64,000 bases of DNA from an uncultured cyanobacterium (GTDB taxonomy: Bacteria; Cyanobacteriota; Cyanobacteriia; Cyanobacteriales; CAWCAG01). The stretch covers positions 1,152,001 to 1,216,000 of the forward strand of contig CAWCAG010000005.1 of the NCBI GenBank assembly GCA_963793425.1, given 5' to 3'. Below the pieces are notes generated by a model. The model worked only from the letters and a program-made list of their open reading frames with translations. It was not told where the DNA came from and did not search any database. Both the position numbers and the translations under genes were made by a program. Shown piece after piece: positions 1,646-60,861 of this stretch; the stretch's first letter is position 1; each line of letters starts with the position of its first letter.

Positions 1646-3055
1646 TTGAAAATGCACAAACAATTTTTCGGAAAACTATCTCTATTCGTATTTATTTTCA
1701 CAGCAACTCCAGGTTTGCTTCCTGCTGGCCCCAACTCACCTTTTTGCCCTCCTGCTGCTTGGGCTAGTAATAGGCATTTCGGTCAAGATGGTCGTGATGG
1801 CAGGGATGGCGAGACTGGCAGAAAAGGTCAATATGGAGAAAATCGCGAGATTTTTGTGGATGGTTCCCCTTTGAATCTCGACATCTCCGGTTCGGATGGA
1901 GAGGAAGGATATGATGGTGAAGATGGTGATCGTGCTAATTGTCACAACCAACCTAGAGATGTACGTCATGACTTAGAAGCTGCTGATGGGGGTGATGGTG
2001 GCGATGGGGGTGATGGTGGCGATGGGGGTGATGGCGGTATTCTTACTGTTTATTACAACAATATTGCCGACTTACGCCAAATTAATGTCCGTGCAGAAGG
2101 AGGAAGAGGAGGAGAATCAGGAGATTCTGGTTATGGTACAGCAGGTTGCAGTTGTCGGTGGCGACGTTGGGAGAAACGAACTTGTACTGGCAATCCAGGA
2201 GATCCTAATTATAGTTGCAAAACTGAAGAATTTGACTGTGAAGATGGGGAAAATGGCAGAGATGGTAGACGAGGTAGAAGAGGTAATAAAGGTGAATTGG
2301 GCAGGTTAGCACTAGTTAAAGACAATCAAAGATTAGCAGCAGATCAACCAACAGCTAATGTTTCTCTCTCTTCAGCCGCAGATAGGACTATCTCTTTATC
2401 TAAAAATATTTGGCAAACTCGGCGGGGGGCAAATTCTCTTTTAGCATCTGGTTCTATTATTAGCGATGAATATGATGAGTTTGTTGAACGTGTTGAAGGG
2501 GAGTTTCAGGTAGTTTGGAATGCTTCGCGCCCAATTACAGACTTTTATAATCAAAATCTTAGCTTAACTCTTGAGGGTCGCAACGATGTTAATATTGTTT
2601 CCCCTGAAGATGTTTGGTTAGAAAGTGAAACTTCCCAAAATAATGGCATCACTCAACTTAATATCACCAAAGCTGTTTTACGTCAAGAAGCAACTCAATT
2701 AACTAGGGCTGATTTTGCTGGTAATCGTTCTGGCTTAACTTTTAGCCTTATTGACAAAGCCAGACAGTCTGATGTCCTTGCTACTCAATTCCGCATTAAG
2801 TATCGTACAGGCAAAGACAGAAGTGGACCAAGACCTGATTCTGTGTTTAATTACACCACTAGATATGAAGGGACGATTCCTGGGGAACTAGTTAAACTGG
2901 AGGGACAACGCTTTACCCTAGATTTGGGTAAACTTCCTATTGATAGCGAATATCTTAGACCAGGAGTTAATGTTGATCTTGAAATTACGGCTGTTCGTTC
3001 TTTAGGAGGACGTTCGGCTGAACAAACCATTTCTTGGAAAGGAGAGATTGATTAA
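1646..3055 (+). CDS. Collagen-like (Gly-X-Y repeat) secreted protein
   Basis: Signal peptide, GxDGxDG and GGDGGD repeats, Cys-rich segment; ATG at 1652 is the likely start. Confidence 0.8.
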   Translation: MKMHKQFFGKLSLFVFIFTATPGLLPAGPNSPFCPPAAWASNRHFGQDGRDGRDGETGRKGQYGENREIFVDGSPLNLDISGSDGEEGYDGEDGDRANCHNQPRDVRHDLEAADGGDGGDGGDGGDGGDGGILTVYYNNIADLRQINVRAEGGRGGESGDSGYGTAGCSCRWRRWEKRTCTGNPGDPNYSCKTEEFDCEDGENGRDGRRGRRGNKGELGRLALVKDNQRLAADQPTANVSLSSAADRTISLSKNIWQTRRGANSLLASGSIISDEYDEFVERVEGEFQVVWNASRPITDFYNQNLSLTLEGRNDVNIVSPEDVWLESETSQNNGITQLNITKAVLRQEATQLTRADFAGNRSGLTFSLIDKARQSDVLATQFRIKYRTGKDRSGPRPDSVFNYTTRYEGTIPGELVKLEGQRFTLDLGKLPIDSEYLRPGVNVDLEITAVRSLGGRSAEQTISWKGEID

Positions 3056-3099
3056 GGCCGCATCCTCTAGCAATATATACAAGTTTTCGGAGAAAATTA

Positions 3100-4083
3100 A
3101 TGAAGAAAGTCTTTTTAGTCGGTTCCCTAATGCTTCTTTTGGTAGGATGTGGTAACAAGGATTCTGCTTCTAATAAGTCTGTTAGCAGTGTTGGTACTCA
3201 GAAGTCTGAAGCGGCGGTTGAGTCTCAAGATTCTCAAGCAGTTGTGAACACAAAAGTAGAATTAATTAACCCAGGTGCTGAACCCAGACAAGAGTTACGT
3301 TTTGCCCCCAAGGTAAATCAGGAACAAACTGTCCAGATGAATATGCAAATGGAGATGAGTATGTCTTTAGCGGGGCAAACCCAACCTGCTTTTAAGAGTC
3401 CGCAGATGCAGATGACGGTGGAAGCGAAGGTAACAGATGTAGATGAAAATGGCGATATCCATGTTGATTTTTCCTATACCGATGCTGATGTTGTTGCTGA
3501 CAGCAATACTTCCCCTGAGATGGCTGAGGCGATGCGTAACCAAATTAAACAAATCGTCGGCTTCAAAGGTTCTATGGTTGTAGATTCTATGGGTAACACC
3601 AAAGATGTGAATTTTGACTTACCTGAAAGCGTTGACCCCAACAGCAAGCAGATGTTGGAACAGATGTTAAACTCCTTAAAACAATTATCGTCCCCTGTTC
3701 CGGCTCAAGCTGTGGGAGAAGGGGCAAAGTGGCAGGTTGATAATACTTTAACGGCTAATGGCATTACTTTAGACCAAGTTTCTACCTACGAAGTAGAAAG
3801 CTTACAAGGAGATACTGTTACCCTAAAAACCACTGTACAACAACAAGCAGACCCCCAAAAAGTTAGTCCTCCTGGTTTGCCTCCCAATGCTTCTATTAAC
3901 TTGCAATCTCTAAATTCCCAAGGCGAAGGTACATTCACCATTAAGTTAGACCAAATCTTGCCTACCAGCGCAACTATGGCCATAACTTCCGATACACAAA
4001 TGGCGGTTAAACAACCCGATAGTCAAGAGGAAATTCCTATGGGGATGAATATGGTGATGAATATGAGTTTGCAAGGGCAGTAA
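3100..4083 (+). CDS. Lipoprotein of unknown function (DUF6263-like)
   Basis: Lipobox LLVGC; PGAEPRQELRF and P.PAQAVGEGAKW motifs. Confidence 0.7.
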   Translation: MKKVFLVGSLMLLLVGCGNKDSASNKSVSSVGTQKSEAAVESQDSQAVVNTKVELINPGAEPRQELRFAPKVNQEQTVQMNMQMEMSMSLAGQTQPAFKSPQMQMTVEAKVTDVDENGDIHVDFSYTDADVVADSNTSPEMAEAMRNQIKQIVGFKGSMVVDSMGNTKDVNFDLPESVDPNSKQMLEQMLNSLKQLSSPVPAQAVGEGAKWQVDNTLTANGITLDQVSTYEVESLQGDTVTLKTTVQQQADPQKVSPPGLPPNASINLQSLNSQGEGTFTIKLDQILPTSATMAITSDTQMAVKQPDSQEEIPMGMNMVMNMSLQGQ

Positions 4084-4110
4084 AGTATTCTGTTTTATGA
4101 AGAGGTTTGT

Positions 4111-4695
4111 ATGGTTAAACAGTTTGTTGCAATCCAAAAACATAATTACACTCCAGAAGAATATCTAGAGTTAGAAGCTAAAGCTGAATATAAAAGTGAA
4201 TATTTAGATGGGAAAATTATTCCTATGACAGGAGGCACTACCAATCATAATAAAATCGCTGGTAACTTTTATCGTCAGTTTCCTTTAACTATTGCTGGCC
4301 AAGATTATGATATTTATATAGGCGATGTGCGCCTATGGATTCCTGAATATCGCCATTATACTTATCCAGATATCATGATAGTTGAAGGAGAGACTGTTTA
4401 TGAAGGGAAAGGTACAACTACAATTACTAATCCCTTAATTGTTATGGAGGTTTTATCAAAATCTACCCAACAAACTGATAAAACTTCTAAATTTCGTTAC
4501 TATCGTTCTCTTCCTAGCTTCCAAGAATATATTTTAGTCAATCAATACAGTTATTATGCAGAGCAATATGTAAAACAAAAAAACGAACAATGGCTACTGC
4601 GTGACTATCAAGGAGAAGAGTCGATTTTAGCTTTGGCTAATCTAGAATTTGAAATTTCTTTTCTAGAGTTATACAAAAGGGTTAGTTTTACTTAA
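4111..4695 (+). CDS. Uma2 family restriction-like endonuclease
   Basis: YTPEEYLELE..AEYKSEY.DG.IIPMTGGTTNHN, YPD, EVLSKST. Confidence 0.9.
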   Translation: MVKQFVAIQKHNYTPEEYLELEAKAEYKSEYLDGKIIPMTGGTTNHNKIAGNFYRQFPLTIAGQDYDIYIGDVRLWIPEYRHYTYPDIMIVEGETVYEGKGTTTITNPLIVMEVLSKSTQQTDKTSKFRYYRSLPSFQEYILVNQYSYYAEQYVKQKNEQWLLRDYQGEESILALANLEFEISFLELYKRVSFT

Positions 4696-4862
4696 AAAGA
4701 TTGATGTTTTAGGAAAGGGCGAGTACATTGAGTCTTCTTTGAGTCCTACTTTTCCTTGTTTTCTTATTGTTGAAGGGATTGAGCAGTTTGTGCAATGAGT
4801 TTAAATGCGGCTTTCAGGGAACTCCAGAAAAGAAAGCACCGATGAGAGGCAATTGAGCAAAT

Positions 4863-4972
4863 AGTATAAGCAATAATATGTCTAAATTAATTTTTAGATT
4901 AAATCTTTTGAATTTACATAACTTCAACTTAAAATTTGTCAAGGCCAGAAAGTTGCTGCAAAAGACGCATTT
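4863..4972 (+). repeat. Degenerate dispersed repeat (MITE-like end); inverted copy at about 60753-60861
   Basis: 4906-4972 TTTTGAATTTACATAACTTCAACTTAAAATTTGTCAAGGCCAGAAAGTTGCTGCAAAAGACGCATTT aligns with the reverse complement of 60753-60819. Confidence 0.75.
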
Positions 4973-5302
4973 GTGTGGTTTAATGGAATAATTAAAAAAT
5001 CATACTGCTCCTCTTGTATGCAAAATTTATATCTAATCCTTACAAGCAAGCTAAACCGTTGATTAAGCTACCATTTTCCTCAAAATTGTAGTGATTAGAA
5101 CTACTTTGTTAATCAAATATTGAGGGCGATTACAAAAGTTTTTTTGACAAATATGACTCTTTGGCTTAAAGTGTGTAATTTCAAATTGTGACCTTTGTCT
5201 CTAAACATTCAACGGAACACAAAAAAGCGATTAAGCATTGGTGACAAGTCAAGCAAAAGCACAAGTAGAATCATCTCCCTAGCTCCCCACCTCCCCCTGT
5301 AC

Positions 5303-5308
5303 TATAAT
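5303..5308 (+). promoter_or_regulatory. Candidate -10 box of the RT gene
   Basis: Perfect TATAAT 28 nt upstream of the RT ATG. Confidence 0.45.
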
Positions 5309-5336
5309 CTCTTCAGACATCTATTTTTCCGAAATA

Positions 5337-6740
5337 ATGACCGAGCAACCCCGTAACCGTCAGGAACTCTATGATCTTGTTCGCGCAAGAGGGAAACAAG
5401 AATTTATTTTAGAAGAAATGACTCGCTTGGGTTTTTGGCCAGAGGAAGGAGAAATTCCCCAAGATCCGGCTGATGAAATCCGTCGCACAGGAGAGATTCG
5501 CAGAGAGTTAGAGCTGTTACGGCAAGAAAGTTCCCGACTTCACAACGAAAAAGCCCTTCGTAAAGAAGCTTTGAAGCAGAGGTTAGCAGAATCTCGGCGC
5601 AAACAGGCGGAAACCAAAGCAAGGCGGGAAAGAGAGCGACAGGAACGCGCAGAAGCTTGGCAGCAACGACAAGAGCAAGATATTGTTTATTTAGGGGAAG
5701 GAGTTTCAGGGGGACTTAATCATACCAACTGCGACGAAGAAAGGTTGCAATCGCGAGATTTACCACTCCTGGGAACAGCCCAGGAAATTGCCCAAGCAAT
5801 GGAAATTAGCATCGGGCAGTTGCGTTTCCTCGCTTTTAACCGCAAAACAGCTACTATCTCCCATTACATACGCTTCAAAATTCCGAAAAAGACGGGGGGA
5901 GAGCGACTAATATCGGCTCCTTTGCCGAAGTTAAAACAAGCCCAACACTGGCTTTTAAGCAATATTTTAGCAAAAATAGCCATTAATGATGCCGCTCATG
6001 GTTTTCGCCGCGATCGCTCTATAGTAACCAATGCTCAACCCCATGTTGGTGCTGATATTGTGATTAATTTTGACCTTAAGGATTTTTTCCCTTCTATCTC
6101 CTACAAAAGGGTTAAAGGATTGTTTCGCTCCTTCGGTTACTCAGAAGCTGCCGCCACTATTTTCGCTTTGTTATCTACCGAAGCAGCATTAGAAACAGTA
6201 CAACTAGATAATCAAACCTATTATGTCGCTTTAGGAGAGCGTCATTTACCCCAAGGCTCCCCGGCTTCCCCCGCTATTTCTAACCTTCTCTGTCGCCGTT
6301 TAGATAAACGCTTAACCACTGCAGCCGCAGAATTAGGCTTTACCTATACCCGCTATGCCGATGATCTCACCTTTTCAGCTTCTGGCGATCATCTCCGCTA
6401 TGTTTGTAATCTCCTTCGCCGTACTGAATCAATTGTTAGTCATGAAGGTTTTACCATTAACCCAGAAAAAACCAGGATCTTACGTCGCAAATCTAGCCAA
6501 TTAGAAGTAACTGGAGTTGTGGTTAACGAATTTCTTAACTTAGACCGTAAAACTCTCAAGCGCTTCCGTGCGACTTTGTACCAAATTGAAAAAGATGGCT
6601 TAACGGGAAAAACCTGGGGAAATTCCAACGATCTCCTGGCAGCAATCCAAGGTTTCAGTAATTTTGTGGACATGGTTAATTCAGTTAAAGGAAGCCAGTT
6701 TCAAGCACAAGTTAAGCGTATTAAGGAAAAGTGGTGTTGA
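5337..6740 (+). CDS. Retron-type reverse transcriptase with long charged N-terminal extension
   Basis: IPKKTGGERLISAP, AHGF, retron region X NAQPH (NAxxH), DLKDFFPSI, LPQGSPASP, YTRYADDLTFS, region Y VTG (LEVTGVVVN). Confidence 0.92.
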   Translation: MTEQPRNRQELYDLVRARGKQEFILEEMTRLGFWPEEGEIPQDPADEIRRTGEIRRELELLRQESSRLHNEKALRKEALKQRLAESRRKQAETKARRERERQERAEAWQQRQEQDIVYLGEGVSGGLNHTNCDEERLQSRDLPLLGTAQEIAQAMEISIGQLRFLAFNRKTATISHYIRFKIPKKTGGERLISAPLPKLKQAQHWLLSNILAKIAINDAAHGFRRDRSIVTNAQPHVGADIVINFDLKDFFPSISYKRVKGLFRSFGYSEAAATIFALLSTEAALETVQLDNQTYYVALGERHLPQGSPASPAISNLLCRRLDKRLTTAAAELGFTYTRYADDLTFSASGDHLRYVCNLLRRTESIVSHEGFTINPEKTRILRRKSSQLEVTGVVVNEFLNLDRKTLKRFRATLYQIEKDGLTGKTWGNSNDLLAAIQGFSNFVDMVNSVKGSQFQAQVKRIKEKWC

Positions 6741-6839
6741 AAATCCGTTTAACTTTTGCTCAGACTAAAAAAGACTGCTGCTATCACAATTAAACATAAA
6801 AGAGCCAAGGGAACCAAAAGATTTAAAGGTTCGATCATC

Positions 6840-7589
6840 TCAAAAGGGAAAGGCAAATTTTTGGGAAGAAGCTTGTGTAGAATTAACTTGAGCAACAGCT
6901 TCTGCTAGAGGAACCAACCGTACTTCTTGCTGTTCTACCCTTACTTGATAAGCTAAACTATGGGTAAAGTCCAAAGCAGTCAGCCAGCCACTTTTACGGT
7001 GATAAGCTCCGGTATCAATATCTAACCAGCCCGGCCCTGAAGCGATTTTTCCTGGAGGTACTCCTGGTAGGGTAAAGGTAATGGTATGTCCTGTAATAAT
7101 TAATTTATCAGGAAAATAAGGTTTAGTGGTGCGGTGAAACTCTTCCCTAATCCAACAAAACTGTTCAGAAGTTTGTTGATCTAAAGGTAAATTAGGATTA
7201 ACTCCTGCATGAACCAGCCAAATATTCCCTAAATCGAGATAATTGGGTAAAGTGCGTAGCCATTCAATATGCTCTTTAGGAATACCTTCTTCCCCATAAC
7301 TAGCTATGGTGGCATAACCACCACTATACAGCCAAGCTTGTAGCGCTGCTTCAGAAGTAAATTCTTGATCCAAAACAGCAAGTAACATATCTTCGTGGTT
7401 GCCTAAAATACAAGAATAGTTATTCTGCATTACTAACTCAATTACTTGAGAACTTTTTGGTCCTCTATCAATAAGATCCCCAAGGAAATATACTCGATCT
7501 TGCTGTCCAGGAGCAACCGCTTCCAATAATATTTTCAAAGCATCGTAGTGACCATGAACATCACCAATCAAAATCTGGCGCTTTGTCAT
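6840..7589 (-). CDS. Calcineurin-like metallophosphoesterase (Ser/Thr phosphatase family)
   Basis: GDVHG, GDLIDRGP, GNHE, HAG, GHT, DTG motifs. Confidence 0.9.
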   Translation of the reverse strand: MTKRQILIGDVHGHYDALKILLEAVAPGQQDRVYFLGDLIDRGPKSSQVIELVMQNNYSCILGNHEDMLLAVLDQEFTSEAALQAWLYSGGYATIASYGEEGIPKEHIEWLRTLPNYLDLGNIWLVHAGVNPNLPLDQQTSEQFCWIREEFHRTTKPYFPDKLIITGHTITFTLPGVPPGKIASGPGWLDIDTGAYHRKSGWLTALDFTHSLAYQVRVEQQEVRLVPLAEAVAQVNSTQASSQKFAFPF

Positions 7590-7904
7590 TGCTGCTGTTT
7601 ACACTCTCAAACTGAACTTAAGTGCTAGTACTGGGAAGCTCCCTGCTTTTTGCTTAACTAGCCTAGAGATGACTAACTATCAATGGATACAAACCCAAAG
7701 TAACCAAAATTTTGGTTTCTCTTAGATCGCCCCTCAAGTGAGGTTGTGTTGTCCAAAAGTTAGTACTACTTCCCTTATTTTGCCCTTAGCCTCAATATTA
7801 GTTCCTATTGGGATAAATAGAATCTGCAAAAAGTAAAATTAGCAATAAGTTTTAGGGATAAGCTGTCACACAGAAAAAAATGCTTGTTTGATGTTGAGGT
7901 GATG

Positions 7905-7937
7905 GTGATACCAAATCCTAGTGAGCGGCATGACTTA
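7905..7937. repeat. MITE-like terminal repeat; inverted copy at 54123-54156
   Basis: GTGATACCAAATCCT-N8/9-GCATGACTTA at both sites, each near GGGAGTAGGG STRR units. Confidence 0.65.
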
Positions 7938-8034
7938 TCTGTGAGGGTACCGAAGCGTTGCCGTTAGGTTACAGGGAATAGGGAGCAGGGAGTAGGGTTT
8001 GAGAAATTTTCCAGTAGATTTTATATTAGCTAAT

Positions 8035-8214
8035 TTAGTTTGCTACTTTTACTAAGCCGCGTTCTACACCATAAAACAACCTTTTAATTAAGGTGCGCTC
8101 AGTTTCTTCAATACCGTCTTCTTGTAAAAGAGATGTGATTAATTTTTGCTCAACAAGAGAAATAATGCGGGCAGACATGATTTGGCAGAACAGCTCTTGG
8201 ATATCGGTCTTCAT
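8035..8214 (-). CDS. Small hypothetical protein (59 aa), absent from the ORF track
   Basis: Hand translation MKTDIQELFCQIMSARIISLVEQKLITSLLQEDGIEETERTLIKRLFYGVERGLVKVAN*; resembles a cyanobacterial small-protein family ending IxRLxYxxxRGxxxV. Confidence 0.6.
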   Translation of the reverse strand: MKTDIQELFCQIMSARIISLVEQKLITSLLQEDGIEETERTLIKRLFYGVERGLVKVAN

Positions 8215-8425
8215 GGCTTCTCAAAAATTGCGTGTTGACTGAAAACTTTGTTTCCCTTATGTATATAAGTATCGACTTTGTGAGCTACTATTTCCGTGAC
8301 TCAGTAATTATATTGAAGTGATAAAAGTTTGTTTTTGTAGTGACCGCGATCGCACCCTAATTTTCTCTTTTTAAAAGTAATCTTTTCTTAGCAACTAAAT
8401 AAAAATATCTGTTTTATTCACTGTT

Positions 8426-9145
8426 TTAAAAGGTTCGCAAAACTACTCCATCTAAGTTCGCTCCCAATAAATTAGCTCCATCTAAATTAGCTCCACTTAG
8501 GTCTACACCTGTTAAATCTGTTTGACTTAAATTTGCTTCCTCTAAATTAGCGCCGCTTAAATCTGCCTTACGGAAGTTGGCTCTTCCTAAGTTAGCTCCG
8601 GTAAGATTAGTATCAACCAAATCTGCTCCTAAAAAGTTTGCCCTATCTAAATTAGCTCCGGTTAAGTCTGCTTGGCTCAGATCCGCTCCGGTTAAGTCTG
8701 CTTGACTGAAATTACTTCGCAAACCGATGGCTTGAGCAAGATTAGCTCCCACAAGGTTAGCTTGGCTAAGATCAGCCCCAGTGAGGTTAGCTCTAACTAA
8801 GTTAGCTTTGGTAAGATTAGCTTTGGTAAGATTAGCTCGCATTAAGTAAATTTTTTTCAGACAAACTCGACTGAGATTCGCTTCTTCTAAGTCTGCTTGA
8901 ATACAAATTGCTTCTGTTAAGTTGGCTCTAGTTAAATCTGCTTTAACTAAATTAGCCTCGGTAAAATTTACTCTAGTAAGGTTAGCTTCGAGGAGTTCGG
9001 CTAAAGAGAAGTTTACTTTAGTTAAATCCCTCTCGGCTAAAACAACTCCAATTAAGTCAGGTACTAACTGGAGATTTTCAATTCTCCAGTTATTCCAGGT
9101 GATGATGCCTTGATCTAACAGAGCAATATGGTTGGGATCAGCCAT
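8426..9145 (-). CDS. Pentapeptide repeat protein
   Basis: Continuous A(N/D)Lxx repeats; WNNWR N-terminal motif. Confidence 0.95.
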   Translation of the reverse strand: MADPNHIALLDQGIITWNNWRIENLQLVPDLIGVVLAERDLTKVNFSLAELLEANLTRVNFTEANLVKADLTRANLTEAICIQADLEEANLSRVCLKKIYLMRANLTKANLTKANLVRANLTGADLSQANLVGANLAQAIGLRSNFSQADLTGADLSQADLTGANLDRANFLGADLVDTNLTGANLGRANFRKADLSGANLEEANLSQTDLTGVDLSGANLDGANLLGANLDGVVLRTF

Positions 9146-60740: not shown

Positions 60741-60861
60741 ATATAGCAATATAAATGCGTCCTTTGAACAACTTTTTGGGGCTTGACATTTTTTAAGTTG
60801 AAGTTATGTGAATTCAAAATGTTTAATAACAAAATAGCTTCAATTGAATTTTTACTTATAC
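60741..60861 (-). repeat. MITE-like end, inverted copy of 4863-4972
   Basis: Begins ATATAGCAAT; about 65-nt core matches 4906-4972. Confidence 0.7.

Follow-up and report, generated by a model that had tools for sequence, protein, structure and literature searches.

What becomes of a retron reverse transcriptase (RT) when neither a retron RNA nor a partner gene lies beside it? This question was raised by an RT gene at positions 5337..6740 (plus strand) of a 64,000-nucleotide (nt) stretch of DNA from an uncultured cyanobacterium (GenBank assembly GCA_963793425.1, contig CAWCAG010000005.1, positions 1,152,001 to 1,216,000), referred to here as the window. A sequence-only reading had taken the gene for an orphan retron-type RT, with no effector and no evident msr/msd. 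This was correct for the window and not for the genome, in which all the missing parts were found elsewhere. We consider it likely, with a probability of about 0.8, that the RT is part of a complete, fully dispersed type XIII retron, of the Mx162/Ne144 kind, that works in trans. Below, G000 is the window's genome, a 9-contig draft with 2% estimated contamination in which the window corresponds to C5:1152001-1216000, and G156 is a second species of the same genus.

The RT gene and its relatives

The gene (C5:1157337-1158740) is an intact open reading frame (ORF) that starts with ATG and encodes 467 amino acids (aa). An RT core (aa 134-467; 5736..6737, plus strand) was recognized with Pfam, Foldseek and phmmer, and bears on the same strand the motifs NAQPH (aa 232-236, nt 6030-6044), YADD (aa 340-343, nt 6354-6365) and VTG (aa 391-393, nt 6507-6515). 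The intact frame and the three motifs had been listed in the sequence-only reading and were all found in the translation; we take NAxxH and VTG to be retron RT signatures, and YADD to be the catalytic motif. Pfam RVT_1 matched aa 182-395 (E 1.1e-25), and the PADLOC profile RT_XIII matched aa 2-466 (profile positions 8-427 of 469, E 7.6e-192), with the second-ranked PADLOC model about 100 orders of magnitude weaker (E 8.5e-93). The best Foldseek match of the core was the RT of retron Ec86 (7v9x_A, E 6.5e-24, TM (target) 0.75), to which phmmer also aligned aa 136-417 (E 3e-43). When the genome was searched with its own RT, the window gene was the only RT_XIII, and three other RT frames were unrelated (E 1e-8 to 2e-4).

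Of 219 stretches matched in a search for related loci, 145 encode a relative, and the analysis used the best 80 of these. Most of these 80 were cyanobacterial, with 66-76% identity to the window RT, and those of Pyrinomonadaceae and Nannocystis showed 57-58%. Residues N232, H236, Y340, A341, D342, D343, T392 and G393 were invariant in 35/35 aligned RTs. A quick maximum-likelihood tree was built from 81 RTs, namely those of G156, of the window and of 79 loci (L021, with an in-frame stop in the matched range, was left out). It broadly tracked host families and placed the window RT among cyanobacterial RTs, with Nannocystis as the outgroup. Judged by the RT_XIII profile and this position in the tree, the window RT belongs to the type XIII clade (clade 10).

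In the clade nearest to the window RT (Spirulina and other cyanobacteria), RT frames were 565-586 aa long, with about 100 additional aa at the C-terminus (L008:222-1919, L017:1799-3508, L034:7947-9707 and L035:6185-7906). One RT from a locus labelled as an actinomycetotal metagenome-assembled genome (L037) was nested among cyanobacterial RTs and had a cyanobacterial RNase III gene upstream; this locus is probably mis-binned.

Partner genes and the retron RNA in related loci

To describe the usual company of this RT family, ORFs within 6 kb of the RT were clustered across the 80 loci. A same-strand pair recurred upstream of the RT: a protein of about 1,050 aa (WGR_XIII, E 0), with WGR and HEAT domains according to Pfam, and one of about 546 aa (SWIM_XIII, E 1.3e-244), with a SWIM domain. 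These are the two partner families listed for type XIII retrons by Mestre et al. (2020, NAR 48:12632, PMC7736814). In the canonical operon of locus L060, WGR (2927-6079) is followed by SWIM (6088-7728), a non-coding RNA (ncRNA; 7727-7970) and the RT (from about 8001). Linkage could be judged in the 52 of the 80 loci that extended 6 kb or more upstream and 2 kb or more downstream of the RT, the other 28 being too short. The RT was accompanied by ncRNA, SWIM and WGR in 26/52 loci, by ncRNA and SWIM in 3/52, by the ncRNA only in 3/52, and by none of them in 20/52.

The ncRNA was recognized in every SWIM-RT gap of the relatives, as an element of about 245 nt that is conserved and folds strongly. 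Its parts are a terminal stem that varies in sequence, a hairpin that is conserved, a long stem with a variable hairpin cap, and a T-run. An alignment of 29 copies contained 54 consensus pairs, 35 of which showed compensatory double changes (15-21 when partners were slid). Overall, 93.7% of cells in these 29 ncRNAs could pair, versus 35-43% with partners slid by 1-3 columns, and the observed pairing values were reached by 0/500 shuffles. The family takes in the loci of Nannocystis, the genus of the known retron Ne144 (Table 1, PMC7736814). An Rfam scan of the real ncRNA locus gave chance matches only (E 0.11-7.7), and the family is not in Rfam 15. By its pairing, the element is a real structured RNA family, which we take to be the type XIII msr-msd.

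Two ncRNA copies were observed in some type XIII loci (L020, L024, L056, L075, L076 and G152:C1:1857887-1863950). They stood in tandem in Pyrinomonadaceae, and in Calothrix-type loci one followed SWIM and another lay just before the RT; G152 also had two WGR genes.

The other three parts in the genome of the window

A single copy of this ncRNA was found in G000, at C5:626674-626921 on the plus strand (nhmmer E 2.2e-57; covariance model R1, E 3.0e-76, positions 1-243). It ends 530,416 nt before the RT start on the same contig, and sits between two minus-strand genes. The 17-bp terminal stem, the conserved hairpins and the T-run were all present, and the letters of the terminal stem differed from those of other species with the pairing kept. 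A TTGACT-17-TAAAAT site ends 4-7 nt ahead of it.

Both protein partners were located on contig C9, another contig than that of the RT, at a distance of 132,748 nt from each other. The SWIM/DEDE protein SWIM_XIII is encoded at C9:699175-700851 (match E 4.5e-289; PADLOC SWIM_XIII E 3.5e-245; Pfam SWIM at aa 506-538), and the WGR/HEAT-ARM protein WGR_XIII at C9:833599-836754 (PADLOC E 0; Pfam WGR at aa 12-82, and HEAT_2). Each gene gave one match in the genome, had no stops and was full length according to PADLOC. The genes around the SWIM, WGR and ncRNA loci were ordinary ones, such as those for a ferritin-like protein, a transaldolase, a pyridoxal phosphate enzyme, a nucleotidyl transferase, an FHA protein, a P-type ATPase and a response regulator. 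The possibility, raised in the sequence-only reading, that the RT uses an RNA and a partner encoded in trans was the one supported by the genome search.

G000 therefore holds the features by which a type XIII retron is recognized as far as its components go: the RT clade and signatures, the ncRNA, the DEDE/winged-helix/SWIM partner (cluster 114; the family was assigned by profile and Pfam SWIM, an assignment that does not extend to individual DEDE residues) and the WGR-like HEAT/ARM partner (cluster 216). The contiguity of ncRNA and RT, and the partner genes beside the RT, were absent. A 202-aa ORF convergent with the ncRNA (L087 4926-5534) was considered as a further partner and rejected, having no Pfam match and being absent near retron parts elsewhere; it moves together with the ncRNA in G156.

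Conservation in a sister species and selection

All four parts were also found intact in G156, on four different contigs (RT on C10, ncRNA on C2, SWIM on C6 and WGR on C3), with an RT 91% identical to that of the window. Flanking synteny between the two species held at the RT (from window position 5298), SWIM and WGR loci. At the ncRNA locus, about 1 kb was common to both, comprising the RNA, the promoter-like site and one adjacent ORF. The ncRNA itself was 95.2% identical between the two species, versus 56% for the intergenic DNA just 5' of it, and the differences included a change from A-T to G-C in the terminal stem and one from G-C to A-T in the long hairpin.

Ratios of nonsynonymous to synonymous substitution rates (dN/dS) were calculated with our own Nei-Gojobori script. 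Between G000 and G156, dN/dS was 0.083 for the RT (dS 0.55), 0.063 for SWIM (dS 0.56) and 0.171 for WGR (dS 0.51). In a wider comparison, values for pairs of unlinked RTs (0.07-0.23; 7 pairs) were set against those for linked pairs (0.07-0.14; 5 pairs). By these ratios, selection on unlinked RTs is not relaxed; relaxed selection among orthologues was what the sequence-only reading had named as a mark of a relic.

These data bear on two explanations of the scatter. The first is that the RT is a relic, left after the retron broke up and heading for decay, as its separation from all partners and the insertion of an element resembling a miniature inverted-repeat transposable element (MITE) just upstream might suggest. 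Such decay is at odds with the dN/dS of the RT given above and of its N-terminal part (0.106), with catalytic and retron motifs that are all intact, and with unlinked RTs of six other lineages that are equally constrained; we regard it as highly improbable. The second, an artefact of assembly or binning, could draw on the draft state of G000 and its estimated contamination. However, RT and ncRNA lie on one 2.17-Mb contig, and SWIM and WGR on one 1.14-Mb contig, whose ends are hundreds of kb away from either gene; the four contexts recur in the independently assembled G156, where the flanks of RT, SWIM and WGR are syntenic; and unlinked RTs also occur in the complete or near-complete chromosomes of G151, G152 and G153. 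An artefact is the least probable explanation that we considered. Neither the relic nor the artefact is tenable.

Unlinked type XIII retrons in other genomes

Seven genomes outside the window's genus (G029, G016 and G151-G155) were picked because their RT is unlinked. All seven keep SWIM, WGR and ncRNA intact elsewhere. An intact WGR-SWIM-ncRNA cluster lies at a distance of 3.4 Mb from the RT in G029 and of 0.55 Mb in G016. The five genomes with a solo RT, G151-G155, were searched whole and held one RT_XIII each, with the other parts 1.2 to 5.7 Mb off or on other contigs; in Moorena (G153), the parts were at three separate places. Like G000, these partly split genomes therefore have intact parts and an RT 0.55 to 5.7 Mb away or on another contig, but their ncRNA directly follows SWIM (7/7), with WGR there too in 6/7. 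Among the unlinked genomes examined, an ncRNA standing alone and all four parts apart were observed only in G000 and G156. Counting these two, the four parts co-occurred in 9/9 unlinked genomes examined. In the window's genome, the four parts are present in single copy, intact, under constraint and co-occurring.

Co-occurrence was also recorded in 150 further genomes sampled evenly across the phylum, in which an RT_XIII match was counted as full length when it had a profile start <= 12 and E <= 1e-160, a criterion set from the result table. Eleven of the 150 genomes had a full-length RT_XIII, with SWIM and WGR matches in 11/11 and the ncRNA in 10/11; in G088, which is 82% complete, the SWIM and WGR matches were partial. 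With the exception of G013, full-length SWIM_XIII or WGR_XIII was found in no sampled genome without a full-length RT_XIII.

When linkage was mapped on the RT tree, parsimony required 11 or more switches between the linked and the unlinked state (62 rows of known state). Well-supported branches, which made up 28 of the 78 inner branches, force at least 8 changes when 'linked' is set against all other rows.

Several variants of the family were noted. RTs without the N-terminal extension, with strong RT_XIII matches that begin only at profile position 66-92, were found in G020, G065, G059, G107 and G073, none of which had a SWIM_XIII or WGR_XIII match (5/5); they may be a distinct subtype. A weak match to the ncRNA model stood beside each of three such RTs (G020:C1:2835974-2837561, G065:C65:5946-7535 and G059:C1:2279228-2280759). 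In family f24 (G040:C37:22474-29827, G031 and G067), the order was ncRNA - RT - WGR - SWIM, and a shorter SWIM_XIII-like paralogue (profile positions 97-504) was present in all three genomes.

A housekeeping RNase III gene directly precedes the RT in many lineages. This arrangement, on the same strand, was observed in 14/80 loci, linked and unlinked, with the nearest copy at 34-606 nt (for example L001:7122-7895, L027:7158-7871 and L080:7289-7966), and NYN-domain genes often lay ahead of the RNase III gene. A copy was also noted at G029:C1:443030-443704, and that of G000 itself is at C7:121459-122109. With its long terminal duplex, the ncRNA could plausibly serve as a substrate of RNase III. 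RNase III was rejected as a retron-specific fifth part: the same paralogue was present in 40/151 sampled genomes, many of them without RT_XIII, and these 40 include 17/17 genomes of family f6, a family in which no full-length RT_XIII was found.

The N-terminal extension of the RT

The first 135 aa of the RT (5337..5741, plus strand) form an extension made of a conserved GFWP head, a 72-residue Arg/Glu-rich helix and a closing YLGEGVS linker (aa 118-124). An AlphaFold model of the RT (mean predicted local distance difference test score, 80.7) showed one unbroken helix from aa 44 to 115, preceded by two short helices of low confidence (aa 8-17 and 21-30), with the RT core starting at aa 134. The Arg/Glu-rich helical extension ending in YLGEGVS had been described correctly in the sequence-only reading. 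Its dN/dS between G000 and G156 was 0.106, with a dS of 0.54 (first 135 aa only).

Searches for a structural counterpart gave little. By sequence search of the PDB, no solved counterpart of the extension was found, matches beginning at aa 136, and no type XIII protein with a solved structure could be found in this way. A sequence search with the N-terminal helix gave no informative match, and a fold search with the RT model recovered the retron RT core only.

The extension had also been proposed to carry an effector or scaffold in its coiled coil. It is kept in 35/35 aligned RTs, linked or unlinked, those of Nannocystis and Pyrinomonadaceae and those of canonical WGR-SWIM-ncRNA-RT operons included, and lies within the PADLOC RT_XIII profile. 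Being common to the whole type XIII RT family, the extension was rejected as a substitute for a missing effector.

Local surroundings of the RT

The RT is separated from the genes around it by a gap of 641 nt upstream and a spacer of 99 nt downstream. Upstream lies a Uma2-family gene (4111..4695, plus strand; Pfam Uma2, E 1e-28) and downstream, convergent to the RT, a calcineurin-like phosphoesterase gene (6840-7589, minus strand; Pfam E 2.9e-15), so that Pfam confirmed the two neighbours named earlier. About half of the upstream gap is a MITE-like dispersed repeat (about 4860..5163), of which 12 other copies, with 69-84% identity, were found in the genome; the size of the gap and its partial origin in a MITE remnant had both been anticipated. 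Repeat and Uma2 gene are context outside the retron. Members of the MITE-like family are about 300 nt long, and the genome contains 13 of them, whole or as fragments; a second fragment in the window lies at 60753-60835 (C5:1212753-1212835).

Three blocks of synteny with G156, as determined with blastn, cover this locus between 5298 and 12999, and nothing is shared upstream of 5298. Both the Uma2 gene and the MITE-like repeat are absent upstream of the RT in G156. The shared region begins with a promoter-proximal block, TGTACTATAAT (5298-5308), followed by the 5' untranslated region (5298..5336 in all, plus strand). A -10 hexamer TATAAT lies within this block at 5303-5308 on the plus strand, 28 nt ahead of the ATG of the RT, exactly as had been noted from the sequence, and is identical in G000 and G156. 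It is a putative promoter of the RT, according to its consensus match and its conservation in two species. Since similarity to G156 starts exactly at 5298, the RT moves as a unit of its own that includes the -10 element. In the solo RT genes L002, L034 and L035, a ACTATAAT-type -10 was observed 40-60 nt before the RT start, resembling the TGTACTATAAT of the window.

A retron RNA beside the RT was sought in four ways. Among 29 inverted-repeat pairs found in 4690-5400, the best had 17-18 nt with 72-82% complementarity, and none was retron-like. The region 4960-5340 folded worse than its shuffles (z +2.16; 99/100 shuffles folded at least as well). An Rfam scan of 4000-8500 gave one match, at chance level (E 2.9), and the type XIII ncRNA profile had no match anywhere in the 64-kb window. 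A local ncRNA was rejected on these grounds, and with it a co-transcribed msr/msd at 4985-5336, which the sequence-only reading had named, together with a standard effector operon elsewhere, as the finding that would make this an ordinary split retron. The weak pairing between 5189 and 5243 proposed in that reading exists only with a bulge, and is outside the 25 longest inverted repeats and not conserved in G156. No type XIII partner gene was found within the window.

The RT might nevertheless have an unrecognized local partner, with Uma2 or the phosphoesterase as effector; the 641-nt gap or the 99-nt spacer would then harbour a divergent ncRNA. Uma2 is nuclease-like, and the protein matches the PADLOC candidate family PDC-S03 (E 5.9e-24); the phosphoesterase stays beside the RT in G156. 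However, with nothing upstream of 5298 common to G156, neither Uma2 nor the gap is a conserved partner, and the gap folds worse than shuffles, is half dispersed repeat and matches neither Rfam nor the type XIII profile. Neither of the neighbours recurs beside the RT in the 80 loci, and Uma2 genes are very common around this genome, another one flanking the ncRNA. A local partner is thus very unlikely.

Uma2 genes flank both the RT and the distant ncRNA (L087:3820-4587, i.e. G000:C5:625819-626586), each on the side where synteny with G156 stops. This hints that Uma2 genes mark rearrangement breakpoints.

Proposed mechanism and its alternatives

In a dispersed retron, the RT would be transcribed from its own -10 element (5303-5308), and the ncRNA from its own TTGACT-17-TAAAAT site. 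The RT would then find the folded ncRNA in trans. Priming is predicted on the 2'-OH of the G that ends the 5' arm of the terminal stem; the a1/a2 names and the branching G are presumed to apply to the type XIII ncRNA as in other retrons, following the usual conventions. Copying of the long-hairpin (msd) region would yield an msDNA of roughly 150 nt and, as in linked type XIII retrons, the RT-msDNA particle would act together with the SWIM and WGR/ARM proteins. Action in trans is feasible, as engineered retron systems express the RT in trans to the msr/msd (PMC6868368).

Several points weigh against a retron that is dispersed and works in this way. The RT and ncRNA of classical retrons are read from one transcript. 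The separate promoters proposed here are deduced from consensus matches and conservation in two species, and trans operation of the retron, its msDNA and the binding of the RNA by the RT are predictions. The four parts are not inseparable: G013 (93% complete) has SWIM, WGR and ncRNA with no RT match, and G163 (97% complete, in 500 contigs; C103:482-2947, the place of L025) has RT and ncRNA with no SWIM_XIII or WGR_XIII match, unless gaps in the assemblies account for these two cases. Nor does co-retention among kin count as independent evidence, and the nine unlinked genomes perhaps amount to six or seven lineages. Finally, the literature, as far as available, gave no tested function for any type XIII retron, and hence no known output with which the working of the dispersed form could be compared.

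The RT could also have been domesticated for a role without the retron ncRNA, SWIM and WGR, the presence of which would then be coincidental or due to other uses. Its own conserved -10 element and its ordinary gene surroundings would suit such a role, and G163 suggests that the protein partners can be dispensable; Mestre et al. (PMC7736814), moreover, raise domestication for retrons that, like type XIII, are inherited vertically. Against this, an msr-msd has no known use when it lacks its RT, yet the ncRNA is 95% identical between the two species and shows compensatory changes, and the window gene is the single RT_XIII in the genome available to use it. The four parts occur together in 9/9 unlinked genomes examined, and the RT retains every family-wide feature, the N-terminal extension included. 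Domestication for a role outside defence, as proposed in the sequence-only reading, may or may not apply; in either case, the genome retains all four parts. We hold a domesticated RT without its retron partners to be unlikely, and a dispersed retron working in trans remains the preferred reading.

Comparison with known retrons and meaning of the dispersed arrangement

The closest known systems are the type XIII retrons of Mestre et al. (Mxa1/Mx162, Mxa2/Mx65, Nex2/Ne144 and Sau1/Sa163; PMC7736814), with which G000 shares the same RT family end to end, the same two partner families (DEDE/winged-helix/SWIM and WGR-like HEAT/ARM) and an ncRNA family common to Nannocystis loci. Vertical inheritance is noted there for type XIII, and the RT tree obtained here, which tracks host taxonomy, is in line with this. 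A retron is defined in the abstract of the same paper as an RT with a contiguous ncRNA gene; in contrast, the ncRNA of G000 is 530 kb from the RT, and its partner genes are near neither of these, nor near each other. As reported in that source, most genomes with 'orphan retrons' are without homologues of the associated proteins, effectors in trans being left open; G000, in which the homologues and the RNA are all present, is the opposite case.

Compared with the canonical operon L060, the orthologues in G000 are 73% (RT), 73% (SWIM) and 55% (WGR) identical, and the ncRNA has the same fold. The ncRNA of L060 ends 31 nt before the RT, and one transcript can carry both, whereas each part of G000 would need its own promoter. 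In engineered editors (CRISPEY; Simon et al. 2019, PMC6868368), RT and msr/msd are expressed from separate genes, as is predicted for G000, but these are artificial and derive from other retron types, whereas the arrangement in G000 is natural and kept under selection. No dispersed type XIII retron was described in the literature found, as far as its available parts go (PMC7736814, PMC13712802, PMC8867640 and PMC6868368 included; the supplementary tables of PMC7736814 could list such loci).

By its RT, its ncRNA and both partner families, the system of G000 is a type XIII retron, and it lacks the contiguity used for definition and detection. Tools based on gene neighbourhood would call the window RT an orphan and miss the other three parts as a system. 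With 20/52 RT loci being solo, a substantial fraction of the type XIII retrons in cyanobacteria may be miscounted.

A broader interpretation is offered tentatively, and we think it possible rather than probable: cyanobacterial type XIII would be a vertically inherited, chromosomally fixed system and no mobile defence cassette, its parts separately transcribed and assembling in trans, its operon broken at least 8-11 times without loss of a part, and its msDNA domesticated for a role that is possibly not one of defence. Under this interpretation, repeated breakage without part loss would argue that co-transfer was not selected for, and would point to a domesticated role.

Four parts that are still under purifying selection after full unlinking suggest that recognition of the RNA by the RT may take place in trans in nature. 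Each part of this retron can be separately deleted or tuned in its native place, which makes it a usable test system. Co-transcription and co-transfer appear not to be needed to maintain the system, which fits vertical inheritance and, perhaps, domestication.

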